Source of the DNA: Candidatus Methylomirabilota bacterium
Lineage (GTDB): Bacteria; Methylomirabilota; Methylomirabilia; Rokubacteriales; DASRDR01
Direction of reading: 5' to 3'
DNA: 60,547 bases
Assembly: GCA_036257195.1 (NCBI GenBank)
Contig: DATAFX010000031.1
Coordinates: 1 to 60,547, forward strand
The translations under genes were made by a program, and so were the position numbers. The stretch's first letter is position 1, and every line of letters starts with the position of its first letter. The notes beneath the pieces were generated by a model. It was given only the letters and a program-made list of their open reading frames with translations. It had not been told where the DNA came from and ran no database searches. This document shows positions 7,446 through 60,547 of this stretch, in pieces.

Positions 7446-7733
7446 CTAGACCCCCTCCACGAAGACGACGTTCGTGCGCGCGGCCGCGAGGCGCATCGCC
7501 TTCGGCTCCCGGTACTCCTCCGAGTCGTACCAGCGCCGGGCCTCCGCGAGGCTCGGGAACTCGAGCACGACGAGACGCCGCGGGCGCCAGCTTCCCTCCA
7601 CGACCTCGTGCTCGCCGCCGCGGACCAGGAAGCGGCCGCCGTACGCGGCCACGGTCGCGGGCACCCGCTGCCGGTACTCGGCGTAGCGGGCGGGATCGGT
7701 CACCTCGAGATCGGCGATGACGTACGCGGCCAT
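7446..7733 (-). CDS. DUF1330 family protein
   Basis: 95 aa from ATG 7733: MAAYVIADLEVTDPARYAEYRQ...GGRFLVRGGEHEVVEGSW...LEFPSLAEARRWYDSEEY. First gene of a tightly spaced DUF1330-crotonase-CoA-transferase operon. Confidence 0.75.
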   Translation of the reverse strand: MAAYVIADLEVTDPARYAEYRQRVPATVAAYGGRFLVRGGEHEVVEGSWRPRRLVVLEFPSLAEARRWYDSEEYREPKAMRLAAARTNVVFVEGV

Positions 7734-7965
7734 TGGCGTCCTCCGGGCTCGTGCGCCGGACCCTCGCTCCATCGGGCGTGGCGCGCCCCACCGGCCCGGC
7801 CGGCCGCCGGCATGGTAGCCCGGGTGGGACGCCCGGCGCCAGGCGCACTCTTCCGCCGAGAACCGCTCCCCCTCGGCGTGGCGCCGGGAGATGCGCGCGA
7901 CGCGGCGGGACGAGCGGGCCGGGCGTTCCGCTGCTCTGGCCCCGGCAGGCGGGCGCGGTCGGGCG

Positions 7966-8589
7966 CTAGCCCTCGCCCCTCGACCGGAGGCGCGCCGAGA
8001 CCATCCACTCCTTGCCCTGGCGGCCCTCGGGAGAGGCGAAGGGGACATAGTCCTCGACCAGCTCGAAGCGCGGGGCCAGGAGCCCGCGGACCTCCGCCTC
8101 GCCCACGGCAAACGGGGGTCCCCCCACGCGCTCTCCCATGGGAAAGAAGCAGGCGAGGAGCCATCCGCCCGGCTTCAGGATCGCCGCGAGCACCTCGACG
8201 TACTCCGGCCGACGCCCAGGATCGATCGCGCAGAACGAGGTGTACTCCCACACTCCATCGAAGAAGCGAGGATAGGCCTCGGCGAGCCCGAACACGTCCC
8301 GCTCCTCGAAGGTCACCTCCACTCCCTCCCGCTGGGCAAGCTCGCGCGCCGCGCGGACGACCTCCGGGACGAAGTCGAAGCCGAAGACTCGGAACCCGCG
8401 CCGCGCCAGGAACCGGGCGTCGTGACCGCGGCCGCAGCCGGGGACGGCCACGATGCCCCGGGGCAGGGGGTGGCGCGCCAGGTGAGCGCCGAGCGAGGGG
8501 TTCGGCCGGCCGAGCTCCCAGCGGTCGCTCCCCTGGTCGTAGAGCCCCTGCCAGAACTCGGGATCGCTGACCGTGGGACCGGTCGTCAC
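7966..8589 (-). CDS. thiopurine S-methyltransferase (TPMT)-like SAM methyltransferase
   Basis: FWQGLYDQGSDRWELGRPNP, VPGCGRGHDARFLA and FDGVWEYTSFCAIDP resemble TPMT / halide-thiol methyltransferases. Confidence 0.75.
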   Translation of the reverse strand: MTTGPTVSDPEFWQGLYDQGSDRWELGRPNPSLGAHLARHPLPRGIVAVPGCGRGHDARFLARRGFRVFGFDFVPEVVRAARELAQREGVEVTFEERDVFGLAEAYPRFFDGVWEYTSFCAIDPGRRPEYVEVLAAILKPGGWLLACFFPMGERVGGPPFAVGEAEVRGLLAPRFELVEDYVPFASPEGRQGKEWMVSARLRSRGEG

Positions 8590-54770: not shown

Positions 54771-57109
54771 GCGAGTCACCGCGTCGGCCGCGGACGGCGG
54801 TTGGCGCGGTCGTGGAGACGCCGGGCGGCGACCGCGGCAGCCGGCCGTTCCGTGTGATCGGCACGCGGGTCGCCAAGCTCGACGCCGTCGAGAAGGTGAC
54901 GGGCACAGTCCAGTACCTGCCGGACCTCGAGGTCCCGGGCATGGTGTGGGGGAAGATCCTCCGCACGCCGGTGCCACACGCCCGCATCGTGCGGATCGAC
55001 ACGAGCCGCGCGGAGGCGCTGCCGGGCGTCCTGGGCGTGGTCACGGGCCGCAACGTCCAGCAGCGCCCGTTCGGCTACGCGAAGGATCACCTGGCCCTGA
55101 AGGGCGACGTCGTCCGCTGCATCCGCGACGAGGTGGCGGCGGTGGCGGCGGAGACCGAGGAGATCGCGGCGGAGGCCTGCCGGCTCATCGACGTCACGTA
55201 CGAGGAGCTGCCCGCGGTCTTCGATCCCGAGGCCGCGCTGCGCCCCGACGCGCCGAGGATCCACGAGCAGTTCCCCGGGAACCTCGTCAACTTCGCCTAC
55301 AAGTTCACCGCCGGCGACGTCGACCGGGCCTTCCGGGAGGCCGACGTGGTCGTCGAGGGCACGTATCGGCTGAACTACGTCACCACGGCGTGCATCGGGA
55401 CGATGGCGGCGCTCGCCCAGTGGGATCCCCGCGGCAACCTCACGATGTGGTCCACGACCCAGATCCCGTTCCTCTACCAGAAGGATCTCGCGGAGGCGCT
55501 CGGGATCTCCGGGGACCGCATTCGCGTGATCCAGCCGCCGGTCGGCGGGAACTTCGGCCGGGGCCTCGACCTCTACCCGATCGACATCATCGCGGCGCTC
55601 CTCGCCCGGCACGTCAGCCGGCCGGTGAAGATCGTGTTCGACCGGGAGGAGGAGTTCATCGCCAGCCCGACCCGCGAGCCGTGCGTCTTCACGCTCCGCA
55701 CGGCGGCGCGGGCCGACGGGACGCTGCTCGCGCGGGATGCCCGGGTCCTCATCGACAACGGCGCGTACGTCTCGTGGGGATCGACGACGCCGTACGTCAT
55801 GATGACGACCCTCGCCGGCTTCTACCGGTGCCCGAACATCCGGTTCGACACGGCCATCGTCTACACCAACAACGTCTACTCGGGCTCCATGCGCGGGTAC
55901 GGCAACCTCGAGTCCACCTTCGCGGTCGAGGCGCAGATGGACGAGATCGCGGAGCGGCTCGGGCTGGACCGCGTCGAGATCCGGCGTCGCAACGCGAACC
56001 GACCGGGCGACGTCACGCCCCAGGGGCTCCGGATCACGAGCTGCGCGCTCGCGGAGTGCTTCGACGCGGTGGCGCGCGACATCCGCCAGCCCCTCGACCG
56101 GCCGCCCCGCCCCGGCTGGACGCGGGGGGTCGGCTATGCCGGGATGTTCCACGTGGGCGGCGGGGCGCGCGTCTACCGATCAGACGGCTGCGGGGCGATC
56201 GTCAAGCTCGACGACTTCGGGAAGGTCACCCTGATCACCGGCGCCAGCGAGATCGGACAGGGGTCGGAGACGGTCCTGGCGATGATCGTGGCCGAGGAGC
56301 TCGGGATCCCGCTCGGGCGGGTCGAGGTCGTGAACGACGACACGGCGGTCAAGCCCTGGGACGTCGGCGTCCACGCCAGCCGGACGACGTTCATCGCGGG
56401 GAACGCCGCGCTCCTCGCCGCGCGGGACGTGAAGCGACAGCTCCTCGCCCTGGGCGCCCAGCAGCTCGACGAGCCCCCCGAGGCCCTCGACATCGAGGAC
56501 GGGTACGTGCACGTGGCGGCCGCGCCCCAGCGCCGGATCGGATACGAGCGCGTCGTCCGGGCGGGACACTTCCGCGAGGGCGGGCGGATCCTGATCGGCC
56601 AGGCGTTCTACGACCCGCCGACCCAGATGCTGGACAAGGACTTCCGGGGCAACGTGTCGGTCACCTACGGCTTCGCCGCCCAGGCTGCGCTGGTCGAGGT
56701 CGAGGAGGCCACCGGCAAGATCGAGGTGCTGCGGGTGGCCTCCGCGCACGACGTGGGGCGGGCCCTGAACCCGGTCGGCTGCGAGGGCCAGATCGAGGGT
56801 GGCATCCACATGGGGCTCGGCTACTGCCTCACCGAGGAGCTCCGGCTCCGGGACGGGCGCGTCCTCAACCCGGGCTTCCTCGACTACAAGCTCCTCACCG
56901 CCCCGGACATGCCCGAGATCCTGATCACGCTGATCGAGACGGTGGACGAGGCCGGGCCCTTCGGCGCCAAGGGGCTCGGCGAGGCGGGCACGATTCCCAT
57001 CTCCGCCGCGGTCGCGAACGCGGTGAAGGACGCGACCGGGGTGCGGATCACCGAGCTGCCCATGACACCCGAGCGGGTGTACCGGGCGCTGCGGCAAAGG
57101 GCCGGGTGA
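54767..57109 (+). CDS. molybdopterin-binding large subunit of a xanthine dehydrogenase / aldehyde oxidase-family enzyme
   Basis: 780 aa from GTG 54767 (GTGA overlap). GKILRTPVPHARIVRID, GGNFGRG, SMRGYGN, GLGEAGTIPISAAVANAV. Confidence 0.9.
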   Translation: MSESPRRPRTAVGAVVETPGGDRGSRPFRVIGTRVAKLDAVEKVTGTVQYLPDLEVPGMVWGKILRTPVPHARIVRIDTSRAEALPGVLGVVTGRNVQQRPFGYAKDHLALKGDVVRCIRDEVAAVAAETEEIAAEACRLIDVTYEELPAVFDPEAALRPDAPRIHEQFPGNLVNFAYKFTAGDVDRAFREADVVVEGTYRLNYVTTACIGTMAALAQWDPRGNLTMWSTTQIPFLYQKDLAEALGISGDRIRVIQPPVGGNFGRGLDLYPIDIIAALLARHVSRPVKIVFDREEEFIASPTREPCVFTLRTAARADGTLLARDARVLIDNGAYVSWGSTTPYVMMTTLAGFYRCPNIRFDTAIVYTNNVYSGSMRGYGNLESTFAVEAQMDEIAERLGLDRVEIRRRNANRPGDVTPQGLRITSCALAECFDAVARDIRQPLDRPPRPGWTRGVGYAGMFHVGGGARVYRSDGCGAIVKLDDFGKVTLITGASEIGQGSETVLAMIVAEELGIPLGRVEVVNDDTAVKPWDVGVHASRTTFIAGNAALLAARDVKRQLLALGAQQLDEPPEALDIEDGYVHVAAAPQRRIGYERVVRAGHFREGGRILIGQAFYDPPTQMLDKDFRGNVSVTYGFAAQAALVEVEEATGKIEVLRVASAHDVGRALNPVGCEGQIEGGIHMGLGYCLTEELRLRDGRVLNPGFLDYKLLTAPDMPEILITLIETVDEAGPFGAKGLGEAGTIPISAAVANAVKDATGVRITELPMTPERVYRALRQRAG

Positions 57110-57370
57110 GCCCCGGCGCTTTCCAGAGGCTCCCGGGCGCTCGGACTGACGATCCCTGATTCCGTCCGGCTCCGAATCGACCAAGTGATCGACTAACGCT
57201 CGACCGGGTGCCCGCGGCGAGCGCAGGTGGATCACGACGCGCCTGGCGTGGAGCGGCGAGCCTCGGAGAGGACGGCGTTCGCCGCGGCTCGGGACCTCCC
57301 GTTGAGCGCTTCCCGACGGCAGCGGTCCCCGCTCCCGCCGTCGCCGACCTCCGGCGCCGCCCCAATCTTT

Positions 57371-57435
57371 TCCGCTCCGAGAATCCGCTCGGAAATCCGC
57401 TCCGGAGCGGATTTGGAGCGGATTAGGAGCGGATT
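57371..57435. repeat. iteron/operator array: AATCCGCTC x2 (plus one partial) followed by inverted GAGCGGATT x3
   Basis: Forward copies at 57382-57390 and 57394-57402, with a partial at 57371-57377. Inverted copies at 57405-57413, 57416-57424 and 57427-57435, exactly 11 nt apart. Perfect 20-bp palindrome at 57394-57413. Confidence 0.7.
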
Positions 57436-57673
57436 CCGAGCGATAGCCACGGCCGAAGAGGAACCTCGCTTGCGACCGTAAGTGGCCAGTTTCACTCACC
57501 ATGTGATCCATCGCCGCGCTTCCGGCCCGCCTGGCACGGCCGTTGCCCCCATCGCCGCCCATGATCGAGCGCGGGCTCCGGCTGGAGGTCCTCGGCAGCG
57601 AGCCACTCCCCCCGGGTGGGACCCGGGCCGTGGGCCGGCGGGTCTCGCGTGCGACGGCCTCGGGATCCACCCG

Positions 57674-59584
57674 GTGAGCCCCGACGGCCTCCGCGAGGCG
57701 CTTCTCGAGGCTGCGCTGCACTACGCGCGGCGGGGCTGGCCCGTGCTGCCGCTCCACAGCGTCCGCGCCGGCCGCTGCTCGTGCCCCCGGGACTGCGGCC
57801 GCCCCGCCGGCAAGCATCCCCGCACCCCGAACGGGGTCATGGACGCGAGCGCCGACGAAGCGGTGATCCGGGCCTGGTGGGAGCGGTGGCCGGACGCGAA
57901 TCTCGGCGTGGCCACCGGACTGGCCAGCGGCCTCTTCGTTCTGGACGTCGACCCGGCCCACGGCGGGGATGAATCGCTCGAGATCCTGGTCGCCCGTCAC
58001 GGGGCCCCGCCCGGAGGGCCGATCTCCCACACCGGCGGCGGGGGGCGGCATCTGCTGTTCGCGCATCCCGGATTCCGCGTGCCTTCGCGGTCCGGCGCGC
58101 TTGGCTCCGGGCTCGATGTGCGGAGCGACGGCGGCTACATCGTCGCGCCGCCGAGCCAGCATCGCTCGGGTCGCCTCTACGAGTGGGAGGCTTCGAGCCA
58201 TCCCGACGAGGTCCCGCTCCCCCAGGCGCCGGCGTGGCTCTTGGCGGGCGGGACCACCTCAGGCGACACGCCGAGGCGCCCTCCGGCCTCGCCGCTCGAC
58301 GACACGATCCCCGAGGGGCGCCGCAACGAGGCGCTCACCTCTCTCGCCGGCACGATGCGGTGGCGCGGGATGACGCAGGAGGAGATCCAGGCGGCGCTGG
58401 CCGCGGTCAACGCGCGACGATGCGCCCCGCCGCTCGCCGAGACGGAGGTAGGCGCGATCGCGGCGAGCGTCGGGCGGTACCCGGCGGCGCCCACCCCCGC
58501 CGCCGATCCGCCGCAGACCGACGGGCCGAGCCCGATCGGCTGGCCCCTCTACGATGCCGCGGACGTCTGGGAGTTTCCCCCGCCCGAGCCACTCGTCGAC
58601 GGGCTGCTGCCTCTCCGTGGCGTCGTCTGGTGGGGCGGGCCGCCGAAGCGGGCCAAGAGCCTGCTGCTCCTCTACCTGTGCCTGGCCATCGCCTGTGGCC
58701 GCCCGACGGTGGCAGGGCGCTTTCAAGTGCGCAGCCGGCCGCGGATTCTCTATGTCGCCCGCGAGGACGGCGGCGGTCGGCTCGAGGAACGAAAAGCGGA
58801 CATCATGGCCCCGTGGGGCGTCAGGCCGCCGGCCAAAGCCTTCCAGTGCCTCATTCGGCCCCGACTCGACCTCGGCAACGCCGCGCAGGTTGGCCAGCTT
58901 CGCGAGACGTGCCTGACCCAAGGGGTGACACTGCTCGTGCTGGACACCTGGACCGCGCTGTCCCTGGGGGCGGACCCGCTCTCGGCGCGGGACCAGGCCC
59001 AGCTGGCCGCGACCGTGGTCGAGCTCAGCGACGCGCTCGGCGGCCTGGTCATCGTCGTTGACCACACCCGGAAGAACCGGCTGGAGGGGCAATCCCTGTC
59101 GTCGGCCGACATCCACGGACCCTACGTCAAATGGGCCGCCGCCGAGCACATCGTGATGCAAGACATCGCGGCTGGCCACCCCCGCCGCTTCGAGGTCTTC
59201 GTCGAGGGGAAGGACCTGGAAGCCAACCGCTTCTTCCTCGATGTGAGTCCCCGCGGCAGCGGAGAGGAGAAGTTTGTCTGTTCCGGGACCGCGGCCGAGC
59301 TGGCCGCGGCCCGGCAGGAGCTCGGCGACGAGAACCGCCGGGCGGTGCTCGAGGTCCTGCAGGCTTCCGCGGATCCCCTCGGCCCCGAGGAGGTGCTTGC
59401 GGGCTTGCGTCGCGGCGGGCGCCCGCTTGGGGGGGCGACCATCCGGCGGCACCTGGCCGCCCTTCTCCGGGCCGGGGCCGTCGAGCGAGCCGGGCACGGC
59501 AACCGGACGGTGTACCTGGCGCGCCGGGGGAGCGATCGCTCTGCCCAGGGGTCATCCGAGCGGCACGACGAACGGAGTCGGTGA
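57674..59584 (+). CDS. bifunctional DNA primase/polymerase (Prim-Pol) - PriCT - RepA/RecA-like ATPase - winged-helix fusion protein
   Basis: YARRGWPVLPL...GKHPRTPNG...LFVLDVDPAHGG...GGGRHLLF...DVRSDGGYIVAPPSQHRSGRLYEW (Prim-Pol). IPEGRRNEALTSLAGTMRWRGM (PriCT). GGPPKRAKSLLLL and LLVLDTW (Walker A-like and B). C-terminal RRAVLEVL...IRRHLAALLRAGAV (wHTH). Start set at GTG 57674; the ORF track starts at 57482. Confidence 0.8.
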   Translation: MSPDGLREALLEAALHYARRGWPVLPLHSVRAGRCSCPRDCGRPAGKHPRTPNGVMDASADEAVIRAWWERWPDANLGVATGLASGLFVLDVDPAHGGDESLEILVARHGAPPGGPISHTGGGGRHLLFAHPGFRVPSRSGALGSGLDVRSDGGYIVAPPSQHRSGRLYEWEASSHPDEVPLPQAPAWLLAGGTTSGDTPRRPPASPLDDTIPEGRRNEALTSLAGTMRWRGMTQEEIQAALAAVNARRCAPPLAETEVGAIAASVGRYPAAPTPAADPPQTDGPSPIGWPLYDAADVWEFPPPEPLVDGLLPLRGVVWWGGPPKRAKSLLLLYLCLAIACGRPTVAGRFQVRSRPRILYVAREDGGGRLEERKADIMAPWGVRPPAKAFQCLIRPRLDLGNAAQVGQLRETCLTQGVTLLVLDTWTALSLGADPLSARDQAQLAATVVELSDALGGLVIVVDHTRKNRLEGQSLSSADIHGPYVKWAAAEHIVMQDIAAGHPRRFEVFVEGKDLEANRFFLDVSPRGSGEEKFVCSGTAAELAAARQELGDENRRAVLEVLQASADPLGPEEVLAGLRRGGRPLGGATIRRHLAALLRAGAVERAGHGNRTVYLARRGSDRSAQGSSERHDERSR

Positions 59585-59611
59585 ATCGCCACGCCAGAGC
59601 AGGCGAAAGTT

Positions 59612-59747
59612 CCGCTCACCCCTCCGTTCGAGCGGAGAGCGGCGCCGGGGAGGGAGGGACCCCGGCGACGAGGGGTCCCCTCCCCGGGAGGGGCCGTGCC
59701 GCTCACCGCTCGTCTCTCTATAAGAGCGAGCGGCGGGGTGAGCGGCA
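59612..59747 (+). other. cluster of long GC-rich hairpins and CCGCTCACC repeats downstream of the replicase gene
   Basis: 12-bp stem with one bulge at 59652-59685. A competing 7-bp hairpin at 59677-59693. A 20-bp two-part stem at 59697-59747 with AT-rich loop CTATA. CCGCTCACC at 59612 and 59699, and its complement at 59737. Confidence 0.4.
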
Positions 59748-59897
59748 GGGCGGCGACTCCTGGGGGGGAAAGGGCCCTTTGGTCGCAGAGACGCGCACCG
59801 GCCGTCTCGTCGAGCGGGGAAAGGTGCGGGGAGGGTGCAATTCGGCTGCGCAGTCTGATCCAACGAGGTGGCTATCGTCGTCCGTGCCGTCGTCGGC

Positions 59898-59903
59898 TAG
59901 ACT
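59898..59903 (+). promoter_or_regulatory. candidate -10 element TAGACT for the downstream binding-protein gene
   Basis: Same hexamer as the other TAGACT sites, but without the TG extension. About 86 nt upstream of ATG 59990. Confidence 0.25.
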
Positions 59904-59989
59904 GATCCGGCGGAGCGCGGATTCGGCAAGACCCTGAGCGATCGACACCTGTCACCGAGGGGGCGGACGACCCCGGGAGGAGACCGACC

Positions 59990-60547
59990 ATGCGAGTGAG
60001 CCGCCGAGTGTTCCTCAGGACCACGGGGGTTGGCGCCGCGACCCTCGCGACGGCCGGTGTTCATCGATCAGCCCACGCTCAGAAGAAGCAGGTGGTGACC
60101 ATCGCCTTCCCGGAGACGGTCACCTCGATGGACCCACATCCAGCCCCGCGCAACAGCCCGCGGGAGTCGATGTACGAGGCGGTGTTCGATCGCTTCCTCC
60201 AGCAGGACCGGCAGGGCAAGTACGGGCCGAACGTCATCGAGAGCTGGCAGTGGACCGACGGCAAGATGGGGATGGCCGTCAAGATCCACCAGGGGATCAA
60301 GTTCCACGACGGGTCGGACCTCACCGCCGAGGACGTCGCCTTCAGCATGAACCGGCTGAAGGAGGTCTCGATCTACAAGGCGACCTACGCGCGGGTCAAG
60401 GAGTACCAGGTCCGCGACAAGGCCACCATGCAGCTCGTCTTCGAGCGGTTCGACCCCTCGTTCCCGCGGTGGCTCGGCTTCCTGGCCGGCTTCGTGGTGC
60501 CCAAAGCCTACTTTCAGTCGCTCGGCCCGGACGACAAGGCGCGCGGC
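59990..60547 (+). CDS. ABC transporter substrate-binding protein, family 5 (peptide/nickel type); 3' end cut by the window edge
   Basis: MRVSRRVFLRTTGVGAATLATAG (Tat-like signal), then VTIAFPETVTSMDPH...IKFHDGSDLTAEDVAFS. GGGAGGAG lies upstream. Absent from the ORF track because it is open-ended. Confidence 0.85.
   Translation, partial: MRVSRRVFLRTTGVGAATLATAGVHRSAHAQKKQVVTIAFPETVTSMDPHPAPRNSPRESMYEAVFDRFLQQDRQGKYGPNVIESWQWTDGKMGMAVKIHQGIKFHDGSDLTAEDVAFSMNRLKEVSIYKATYARVKEYQVRDKATMQLVFERFDPSFPRWLGFLAGFVVPKAYFQSLGPDDKARG

Follow-up and report, generated by a model that had tools for sequence, protein, structure and literature searches.

A solitary primase-polymerase/helicase gene in soil Rokubacteria as a candidate minimal replicon inserted without a recombinase of its own

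We describe here a stretch of 60,547 nucleotides (nt), below called the window, which is the entire contig C134 of the metagenome-assembled genome G000 (168 contigs, 68% complete), and in particular a replicase gene that is the only gene in a gap of 2880 nt between a gene for a molybdenum cofactor (MoCo) hydroxylase large subunit of coxL type, ending at 57109, and an SBP_bac_5 binding-protein (SBP) gene, starting at 59990, as assigned with Pfam. That this gene stands alone between these two neighbours had been pointed out in a preliminary description made from the sequence, and this was confirmed. The best explanation, to which we give a probability of about 0.55, is a minimal plasmid-type replicon made up of a Rep gene and an origin, which is endemic to one genus and was inserted into the chromosome without a recombinase of its own, by illegitimate joining of a microhomology type. 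The unit is about 2.5–2.7 kilobases (kb) here and up to about 3.2 kb in the related genome G004, and we read its host genus as one of soil Rokubacteria/Methylomirabilota in which the replicon has long been resident. Comparison of genomes shows that the unit was inserted independently at several chromosomal places, and also that it has a defined right terminus and leaves behind 5′-truncated right-end copies.

A homologue of the replicase was found in 10 of 41 related genomes, with close copies (at least 70% identity) confined to three of the 15 genomes of the genus, namely G000, G001 and G004; several of the 12 genus genomes lacking a close copy are 97–99% complete. The three full copies are located at three different insertion points, and empty sites are found in relatives. 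At the coxL/binding-protein junction, where the preliminary description had proposed to look for such sites, the two genes are separated by about 60–75 nt in G004, G013 and G014 (empty) and by about 190 nt in G002. To the left of the window copy stands a 3′ remnant of an ABC_sub_bind gene, which is found intact (340 amino acids, aa) at the same junction in G003 and whose residues 320–340 matched the gap when the G003 protein was used in tblastn (67% identity, E 1e-4). This remnant marks a deletion next to the insertion. The G001 copy uses the same junction at another point, after the first 33 nt of the ABC_sub_bind gene, and the G004 copy is placed between an SDR gene and an SBP_bac_8 gene; since the latter two are 18–142 nt apart in five relatives including G000, the insertion in G004 cannot exceed 3.2 kb. 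All close copies stand alone, with no other element gene at the three loci. These insertion sites are variable, deletion-prone and liable to rearrangement, and the absence from 12 of 15 genomes, the three insertion points and the empty sites together uphold the earlier proposal of a minimal replicon-type module of mobile origin.

Four extra copies, one in G000 and three in G004, are 5′-truncated and comprise only the 3′ end of the gene together with a hairpin cluster that follows it. The extra copy of G000, on contig C63 between a peroxiredoxin gene and an MBL-rhodanese gene, is 92% identical over 397 nt to positions 59477–59872, from the last 63–108 nt of the gene through the tail, and its hairpin cluster is 96% identical over 166 nt; a 115-nt tail is common to both exactly to 59872, beyond which the window and C63 diverge. 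Those of G004, on contigs C15, C18 and C9, begin 262, 222 and 93 nt before the stop codon and show 93%, 85% and 78% identity with the full copy of that genome; these graded identities suggest insertions of different ages. The youngest of them, C15, and the full copy diverge after the same GTCAGC. In both G000 and G004, the full copy and a truncated copy have an identical right terminus, and searches with the left parts of the unit gave no left-end fragments in either genome. Across the genus, the hairpin cluster occurs only in the three replicase genomes, with 2, 1 and 4 copies in G000, G001 and G004, and a profile of these seven clusters matched, using nhmmer, only the same seven among 201 loci (1.19 Mb) that included the loci of distant homologues. 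As a separate observation, the G004 tail includes a 62-nt unit built around a GCGGATTG core; the full copy has a single such unit, and C15 has about four of them in tandem (L013 11905–12111, L124 8290–8560).

One junction could be analyzed at the level of single nucleotides. In G003 both host flanks of the C63 copy abut, with 86% and 89% identity and BLAST alignments overlapping by 7 nt, and compared with this empty site the C63 copy is a simple insertion of about 345 nt that was already truncated when it was inserted. The insertion hits the signal-peptide codons of a gene otherwise largely deleted in G000. A few bases from the junction the target has the decamer GGAGCGATCG, which is also found at the breakpoint of the element; this makes a microhomology of 10–12 nt, with no evident target duplication. 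For the G004 full copy, C9 and C15, relatives' empty sites exist with spacers too diverged for exact breakpoints, and for C18 only the flanking GFO/IDH/MocA gene was matched by BLAST in seven relatives, with no empty site defined. Among contigs of soil sequencing runs, which may include the sample that G000 came from, one match begins at 59522 (X3) and another stops at 59872 (X2). With regard to the gene that was hit, L118 (G000:C63) 7577–8194 holds a twin-arginine-signal gene, adjoining the peroxiredoxin gene, that is intact in G003 and in G000 is cut to about 35 codons and split by the truncated copy; from its sequence we read it as probably flavocytochrome/sulfide-dehydrogenase-like. Its reduction, taken together with the ABC_sub_bind remnant in the window, suggests deletions beside both insertions.

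The sole long open frame in the gap runs from 57482 to 59584 on the + strand, and with the GTG at 57674 as start, which was set by the homologue starts in an alignment (A1) of 24 sequences being 33–86% identical to the window protein, the product has 636 aa (previously counted as 637). Its proposed composition of a primase-polymerase (Prim-Pol), a PriCT domain, a RepA-like helicase and a winged helix was borne out by Pfam and by a profile match to RepA. The Prim-Pol family PF09250 was matched over its full profile (1–158) at 156 bits against a cut-off of 22.8 (E 1.4e-45), PriCT_1 at 50.9 bits against a cut-off of 21.1 (E 1.2e-13, residues 274–333 of the 700-aa frame, directly after the primase domain) and AAA_25 at E 1.4e-20, with the winged helix giving sub-threshold matches only (HTH_20 22.5 bits, HTH_12 20.9 bits). 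PHROGs places the replicase among phage DNA polymerase/primase families. Prim-Pol enzymes are recognized by a catalytic acidic DxD, a His-containing motif II and a motif III Asp. On the primase side, D92/D94 (LDVD), G122/G125 (GGGGRH), D149 and P161-S162-H164 were invariant in A1 (24/24), with a GGY..PPS.H block following D149, and both the His of GGGGRH and a CxC...C...H zinc motif were present in the window protein and most of the aligned homologues. On the helicase side, the Walker A residue K329, E365 (AREDGG), the Walker B residue D425 (LVLDTW) and H465 (VDH.RK) were invariant and S330, after the Walker Lys, nearly so. Conservation of the catalytic Asp residues and, within the Walker motifs, of the Lys and the Asp, which had earlier been left to be checked, was hereby found throughout the 24 homologues. 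The Walker A motif reads GPPKRAKS, as had been noted, but the Ala therein is not the oddity that it had been taken for, as Gly is found at that position in only 3 of the 24 sequences (A 6, F 6, Y 6, L 2, M 1); this Ala is typical of the clade and no defect.

When the A1 profile was compared with the Protein Data Bank (PDB), the best solved relative was RepA of RSF1010 (1g8y, E 8.9e-15), and in this alignment its Walker A Lys, Walker B, catalytic Glu and His motif correspond to those of the replicase; a single-sequence search of the PDB gave no match, the alignment profile being needed. An AlphaFold2 model (mean predicted local distance difference test score 83.8) matched 1g8y_A in Foldseek at E 3.4e-8 with a TM-score of 0.71 normalised to RepA, and Twinkle, DnaB and T7 gp4 scored similarly to RepA. 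The ratio of nonsynonymous to synonymous substitution rates (dN/dS) was 0.34 for the window and G004 copies (635 codons), 0.34 for window and G001 (545 codons) and 0.36 for G004 and G001, versus 0.10–0.18 for neighbouring host genes, while dS between the replicase copies was 0.40–0.54 as compared with 0.25–0.58 for host genes of the same genome pairs; a methylmalonyl-CoA mutase slice and two coxL slices, being out of register, were excluded. On the basis of these dN/dS values, the host-like dS and the invariant motifs, we conclude that the gene is alive and under relaxed but real constraint, with divergence roughly in step with that of its hosts. The closest database proteins (P0003–P0006) are 75–86% identical, with open reading frame (ORF) and motifs intact; P0003, at 86%, comes from a contig of 3.26 kb and P0004–P0006 from contigs of 81–461 kb. 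The G001 copy has two frame shifts, and a database protein 91–98% identical to it (P0004) is intact. In-frame stops and frame shifts in conserved genes, such as coxL and the G001 replicase, are probably assembly errors, and those of the G001 copy need for that reason not signify a pseudogene. The loci concerned are L020–L025 (coxL orthologues) and L014, in several large-contig genomes of the genus.

Next to the gene we analyzed the non-coding parts of the unit. The iteron array that had been noted on one side consists of three inverted AATCCGCTC units followed by three GGAGCGGATT units (57404–57442) that face them, with 11-nt spacing, together forming a 74-nt palindrome that folds as DNA at -30.4 kcal/mol (z -4.8, a stability that none of 200 shuffles reached); the doubled iteron unit occurs nowhere else in the genome. 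We take it as a putative set of sites to which the winged helix binds, serving as origin, operator or both. In soil run X1, one contig is short of exactly one 11-nt unit (57404–57414), so that the array varies in copy number within the population. The very stable hairpins reported for the other side were likewise found, the region 59595–59760 folding at -58.7 kcal/mol (z -4.8, equalled by 0 of 200 shuffles). There, two inverted CCGCTCAC/GTGAGCGG pairs surround a palindrome rich in G+C and a hairpin whose loop, TCTCTATAAGAG, is rich in A+T and at 12 nt is the only A+T-rich stretch in the window cassette, and we regard the cluster as a putative core origin or priming site. GAGCGG/CCGCTC is found seven times in 59601–59800 and five times in 57201–57400, the two densest 200-nt bins of the window with 0.56 per bin expected, and the common core GAGCGGA suggests that one DNA-binding domain may read both the upstream and the downstream sites.

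The hairpin cluster is conserved in all seven copies. Alignment of the window with G001 becomes continuous from about 57446, and with blastn the matches extended over 57471–59757 for G001 (82% identity) and 57675–59745 for G004 (78% identity); similarity between copies stops sharply past the last GTGAGCGG arm. The conserved unit is the Rep gene with the hairpin cluster. Somewhere within the stretch between the ABC_sub_bind remnant and the iterons (57197–57368) falls the left boundary of the element. In the element the G+C content (GC) is 0.70–0.77, the same as in the flanks and in agreement with the host-like GC described before. Rfam gave just two sub-threshold matches, to microRNA families and on the palindromes, and no sigma-70 promoter or intrinsic terminator match was obtained.

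Searches for signatures of known mobile elements gave little, as the preliminary description had anticipated with regard to integrase, tRNA and att repeats. No integrase, transposase or relaxase family was found in the 49 ORFs of the window (6 + 43 scanned), which were otherwise of ordinary metabolism and transport, and 20-kb stretches surrounding the copies in G001 and G004 were likewise free of integrase, excisionase and further element genes. The window has no tRNA, and flank-to-flank comparison revealed no direct or inverted repeat above background, whether att-like or terminal inverted, in any of the three copies. Neither the protein nor its neighbours have an HUH nuclease or transposase domain as in IS91, Helitron or IS200/IS605 elements. 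The idea of a satellite remnant was not upheld, as the insertion holds one gene, with none for regulation, packaging or capsid redirection as in phage-inducible chromosomal islands (PICI), P4-like satellites or PICI-like elements (PLE), and no integrase, packaging or other satellite gene is found at the three loci. Scans of genome and metagenome contigs gave no relative above 52% identity, and 50,697 phage records contained no full-length relative (best coverage 53%); matches at above 30% identity in plasmid and phage records were confined to the Prim-Pol domain. A 26-nt match between window position 57229 and the G001 junction was considered as a left end and rejected, as 71 of 200 shuffles were as good. 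Transduction of host DNA at the 3′ end was likewise discarded, as the 115-nt tail is not host DNA in 14 relatives, the sole match being one of 28 nt.

We propose the following course of events for such a minimal replicon. The winged helix would bind the GAGCGGA-type repeats, both in the upstream iterons and at four sites of the hairpin cluster, whereupon the RepA-like hexameric helicase would open and unwind the DNA and the zinc-containing Prim-Pol with its PriCT-1 domain would prime and start DNA synthesis, the latter two roles being predicted from homology and intact motifs. A DNA form ending at the right terminus, for example a replication product begun in the hairpin cluster, could then be put into the chromosome by illegitimate, microhomology-guided end joining, performed either by host Ku/LigD or by the Prim-Pol itself. 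Ku was found in all five genomes searched, and for a PrimPol derived from mobile genetic elements (MGE) a polymerase-theta-like activity in microhomology-mediated end joining (MMEJ) is described (PMC11724360). End joining is favoured over site-specific recombination because of the fixed right terminus, the variable left truncation and the microhomology at the one resolved junction; we infer this mechanism of insertion from seven copies and that junction.

Several results weigh against a replicon of this kind having entered the chromosome by end joining. The upstream repeats are not conserved: the iteron array is absent from the G001 copy, and the G004 copy has instead about eight different 22-nt repeats and a T-rich stretch upstream. 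Within the hairpin cluster, a compensatory change was seen in 1 of 49 predicted pairs, the stems varying so little that conservation of structure and of sequence are not separated. Microhomology rests on one well-resolved junction, with those of C9 and C15 in G004 not placed to the nucleotide, and the left boundary was not found, local alignments of the three left flanks giving nothing in direct or inverted orientation. That all four remnants keep the right end would happen with a chance of about 6% under random one-sided deletion. When contigs of four soil runs were compared with 56500–60400, none joined 59872 to the left region; such contigs drop rare forms and are silent on circles. Among 72,556 plasmid records there was no full-length relative (at least 80% coverage; best coverage 69%), and with none at hand the term plasmid-type rests on the RepA homology and the architecture. 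Finally, such primases lie nearly always within integrase-bearing elements, and are nearly exclusive to integrated elements with att sites, in published surveys (PMC5862659), and in G014 a 41%-identical Prim-Pol/PriCT/AAA_25 homologue is accompanied by an integrase and an HTH_17 gene. This homologue (L015, G014:C13, 1–16535) is surrounded by many ORFs without a family, has a Phage_integrase (tyrosine integrase) gene 8.4 kb away and adjoins a truncated ABC_sub_bind gene; this locus probably represents an integrative element of conventional type within the same genus.

These last two points also speak for the rival that we take most seriously, which is still an unlikely one: that the cassette is a decayed remnant of a larger integrase-bearing element, resembling an actinomycete integrative and conjugative element (AICE), an integrative mobilizable element (IME) or a prophage, from which all but the replicase was deleted. 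The HTH_17 gene of G014 is excisionase-like, and deletions did happen next to insertions in G000. Against such decay stand the three close copies being solitary at three sites, the G004 insertion leaving no room for lost cargo between two convergent genes, and the intact ORF and motifs in the window, in G004 and in P0003–P0006 with a dN/dS of 0.34; moreover, truncated copies kept arising within lineages, as seen from their 93%, 85% and 78% identity to the resident full copy, and the C63 copy was already truncated upon insertion. The decayed element named as an option in the preliminary description is hereby disfavoured. Quite unlikely, in our view, is also that the cassette represents a novel kind of autonomous element, similar to a DNA transposon, whose sole protein is the primase-polymerase/helicase/winged-helix fusion, with movement of DNA driven by the Prim-Pol. 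The protein would then begin synthesis at the hairpin cluster or at the right terminus, and the nascent DNA, often incomplete and hence 5′-truncated, would be joined into breaks by MMEJ of the Prim-Pol itself, as a DNA-level analogue of the ‘dead-on-arrival’ copies of long interspersed nuclear elements (LINE) or of T-DNA integration, and neither integrase nor transposase nor reverse transcriptase would take part.

Still less likely is domestication, with the gene serving the host as a primase-helicase in repair, damage tolerance or defence and the repeats as operator and terminator. The host-like GC, also at third codon positions (GC3), the purifying selection, and dS values near those of host genes, which suggest long co-divergence, would fit with this, and Prim-Pols of mobile origin can act in repair (PMC11724360). 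A domesticated gene is nevertheless hard to reconcile with the absence from 12 of 15 genus genomes of which several are nearly complete, the lack of a single conserved locus, the extra fragment copies and a dN/dS two to three times that of neighbouring host genes. Nor does any defence-system model fit, PADLOC giving no informative family and only weak matches to a Csa3-type winged helix-turn-helix (E 7e-4), and NCBIfam has no family for the replicase. The domesticated replicase suggested earlier is made unlikely by this patchy distribution and the repeated new insertions, truncated copies included. As the least probable alternative we consider a non-autonomous element moved in trans, for instance by a transposase recognising single-strand hairpins, of which the hairpin cluster would be the recognised end. 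A defined right terminus with subterminal hairpins and no evident target-site duplication agree with that notion, but the cluster is confined to the three replicase genomes, in 2, 1 and 4 copies, and forms no multi-copy family of the repetitive extragenic palindromic (REP) type; the left ends differ between copies, leaving no second recognisable end, and variable 5′ truncation is unexpected of a cut-and-paste enzyme.

Several known systems can be compared with the minimal replicon that we prefer. The plasmid RSF1010 (IncQ) divides its replication among the RepC iteron-binding initiator, the RepA helicase and the RepB′ primase, and its oriV has iterons and hairpin ssi sites. RepA is the closest solved relative of the helicase domain and the part compared here, and the two systems are alike in logic with their iterons, palindromic hairpin sites and dedicated primase; unlike RSF1010, the cassette unites in a single polypeptide what is there spread over three proteins, uses a Prim-Pol of PF09250 with PriCT-1 in place of RepB′ and has 11-nt iterons in a palindrome, and it is chromosomally inserted with no mobilisation genes. 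The archaeal pRN1 is a small plasmid with a single large replicase, ORF904, in which a Prim-Pol is joined to a superfamily-3 helicase and a DNA-binding domain. Like the cassette it is a small replicon whose sole essential gene encodes a fused Prim-Pol/helicase/DNA-binding protein, whereas the cassette has a RecA-fold helicase of RepA type, a bacterial host and no free form in the soil-run contigs. T-DNA of Agrobacterium is integrated by end joining of polymerase-theta type, and LINE copies have one end fixed and the other truncated. The fixed right terminus, the variable 5′ truncation in all four extra copies, the microhomology at the resolved junction and the lack of an evident target duplication recall T-DNA and non-long-terminal-repeat (non-LTR) retrotransposons; as the cassette has neither reverse transcriptase nor relaxase, the resemblance is one of pattern only. 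Alike in protein architecture are the multidomain archaeo-eukaryotic primase (AEP) helicases of Kazlauskas et al. (2018), with the same domain order of AEP, PriCT-1, RepA/DnaB-type helicase and winged helix, the last proposed to serve origin recognition, which is an architecture known for primases of mobile elements (PMC5862659). Those proteins were found within integrated elements, delimited by att repeats of tyrosine or serine integrases in 25 of 31 genomes, in contrast to the three loci here with no integrase, att repeats or other element gene (PMC5862659).

Accordingly, the protein is a further instance of a known architecture, and what is new is a single-gene, integrase-free cassette that was inserted repeatedly and has right-end fragments. 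The preliminary description had mentioned neither these truncated copies nor a defined right terminus, and had not recognized the Ala in Walker A as clade-typical. Prim-Pol/helicase replicases are well known within plasmids, phages and integrase-bearing islands; a unit of the replicase alone, found at several sites in an uncultured phylum and shedding fixed-end fragments, points to an integrase-free route of insertion undescribed for such replicons, and if the Prim-Pol itself proves to do the joining, the cassette would represent a new class of mobile DNA. A Rep+origin cassette of 2.5–3.2 kb native to Rokubacteria is also a candidate minimal replicon for vectors, and among the 12 papers listed in a literature search none was on plasmids of Rokubacteria, the only one to name Rokubacteria doing so a single time. 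The features of the locus are collected in Table 1.

Table 1. Features of the replicase cassette and its borders in the window
Feature	Position	Strand	Basis
ABC_sub_bind host remnant, last 20 codons + stop	57137–57196	+	tblastn with G003 protein; sequence reading
Left stretch, element or host	57197–57368		Matches neither relatives' junctions nor other copies
Iteron palindrome (putative binding array)	57369–57442		Repeats; DNA fold
Leader/promoter region common with G001 copy	57446–57673	+	Not protein-coding by conservation
Replicase gene, 636 aa	57674–59584	+	Pfam; PHROGs; motifs; structure; dN/dS
Prim-Pol with Zn motif	~57713–58237	+	Pfam PF09250
PriCT-1	58301–58480	+	Pfam
RepA-like RecA-fold helicase	58559–59077	+	Pfam AAA_25; profile; structure
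Winged helix	59321–59509	+	Weak Pfam signal
Conserved hairpin cluster	59599–59757		Sole non-coding part kept in 7/7 copies
Lineage-specific tail, right terminus 59872	59758–59872		Common to C63 copy, not G001/G004
Host promoter + leader of SBP gene, outside element	59893–59989	+	Kept upstream of same gene in G002, G005, G008

Some further observations were made at the borders of the cassette and in the databases. Next to the right end, a TAGACT -10-like box begins at 59898, and the TAGACTG box found by the right end in both the window and G001 was tried as a target motif and rejected as a generic host -10-like box. It occurs at five + strand sites of the window (19721, 22172, 46283, 53343 and 59898), upstream of several genes and often after TG or GG, and it is probably a host -10 promoter element. 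The coxL/SBP junction as such (window 57094–60071, loci L031–L039) is a variable hot spot in the genus. The replicase occupies it in two genomes; G003 has the ABC_sub_bind gene there, the two G008 loci each have a 399-aa ORF, and G005 has yet other content. The sole supported joint in the soil runs, from 57094 to 60071 (X2, X3), represents relatives with an empty site. The C-terminal half of the replicase, with helicase and winged helix, is found at 52–59% coverage and 55–59% identity in database proteins having other N-termini, with DnaB_N PF00772, PF22763, PF12965 and PF16793 as the alternative N-terminal domains, and initiator-helicase and primase modules have therefore been shuffled.

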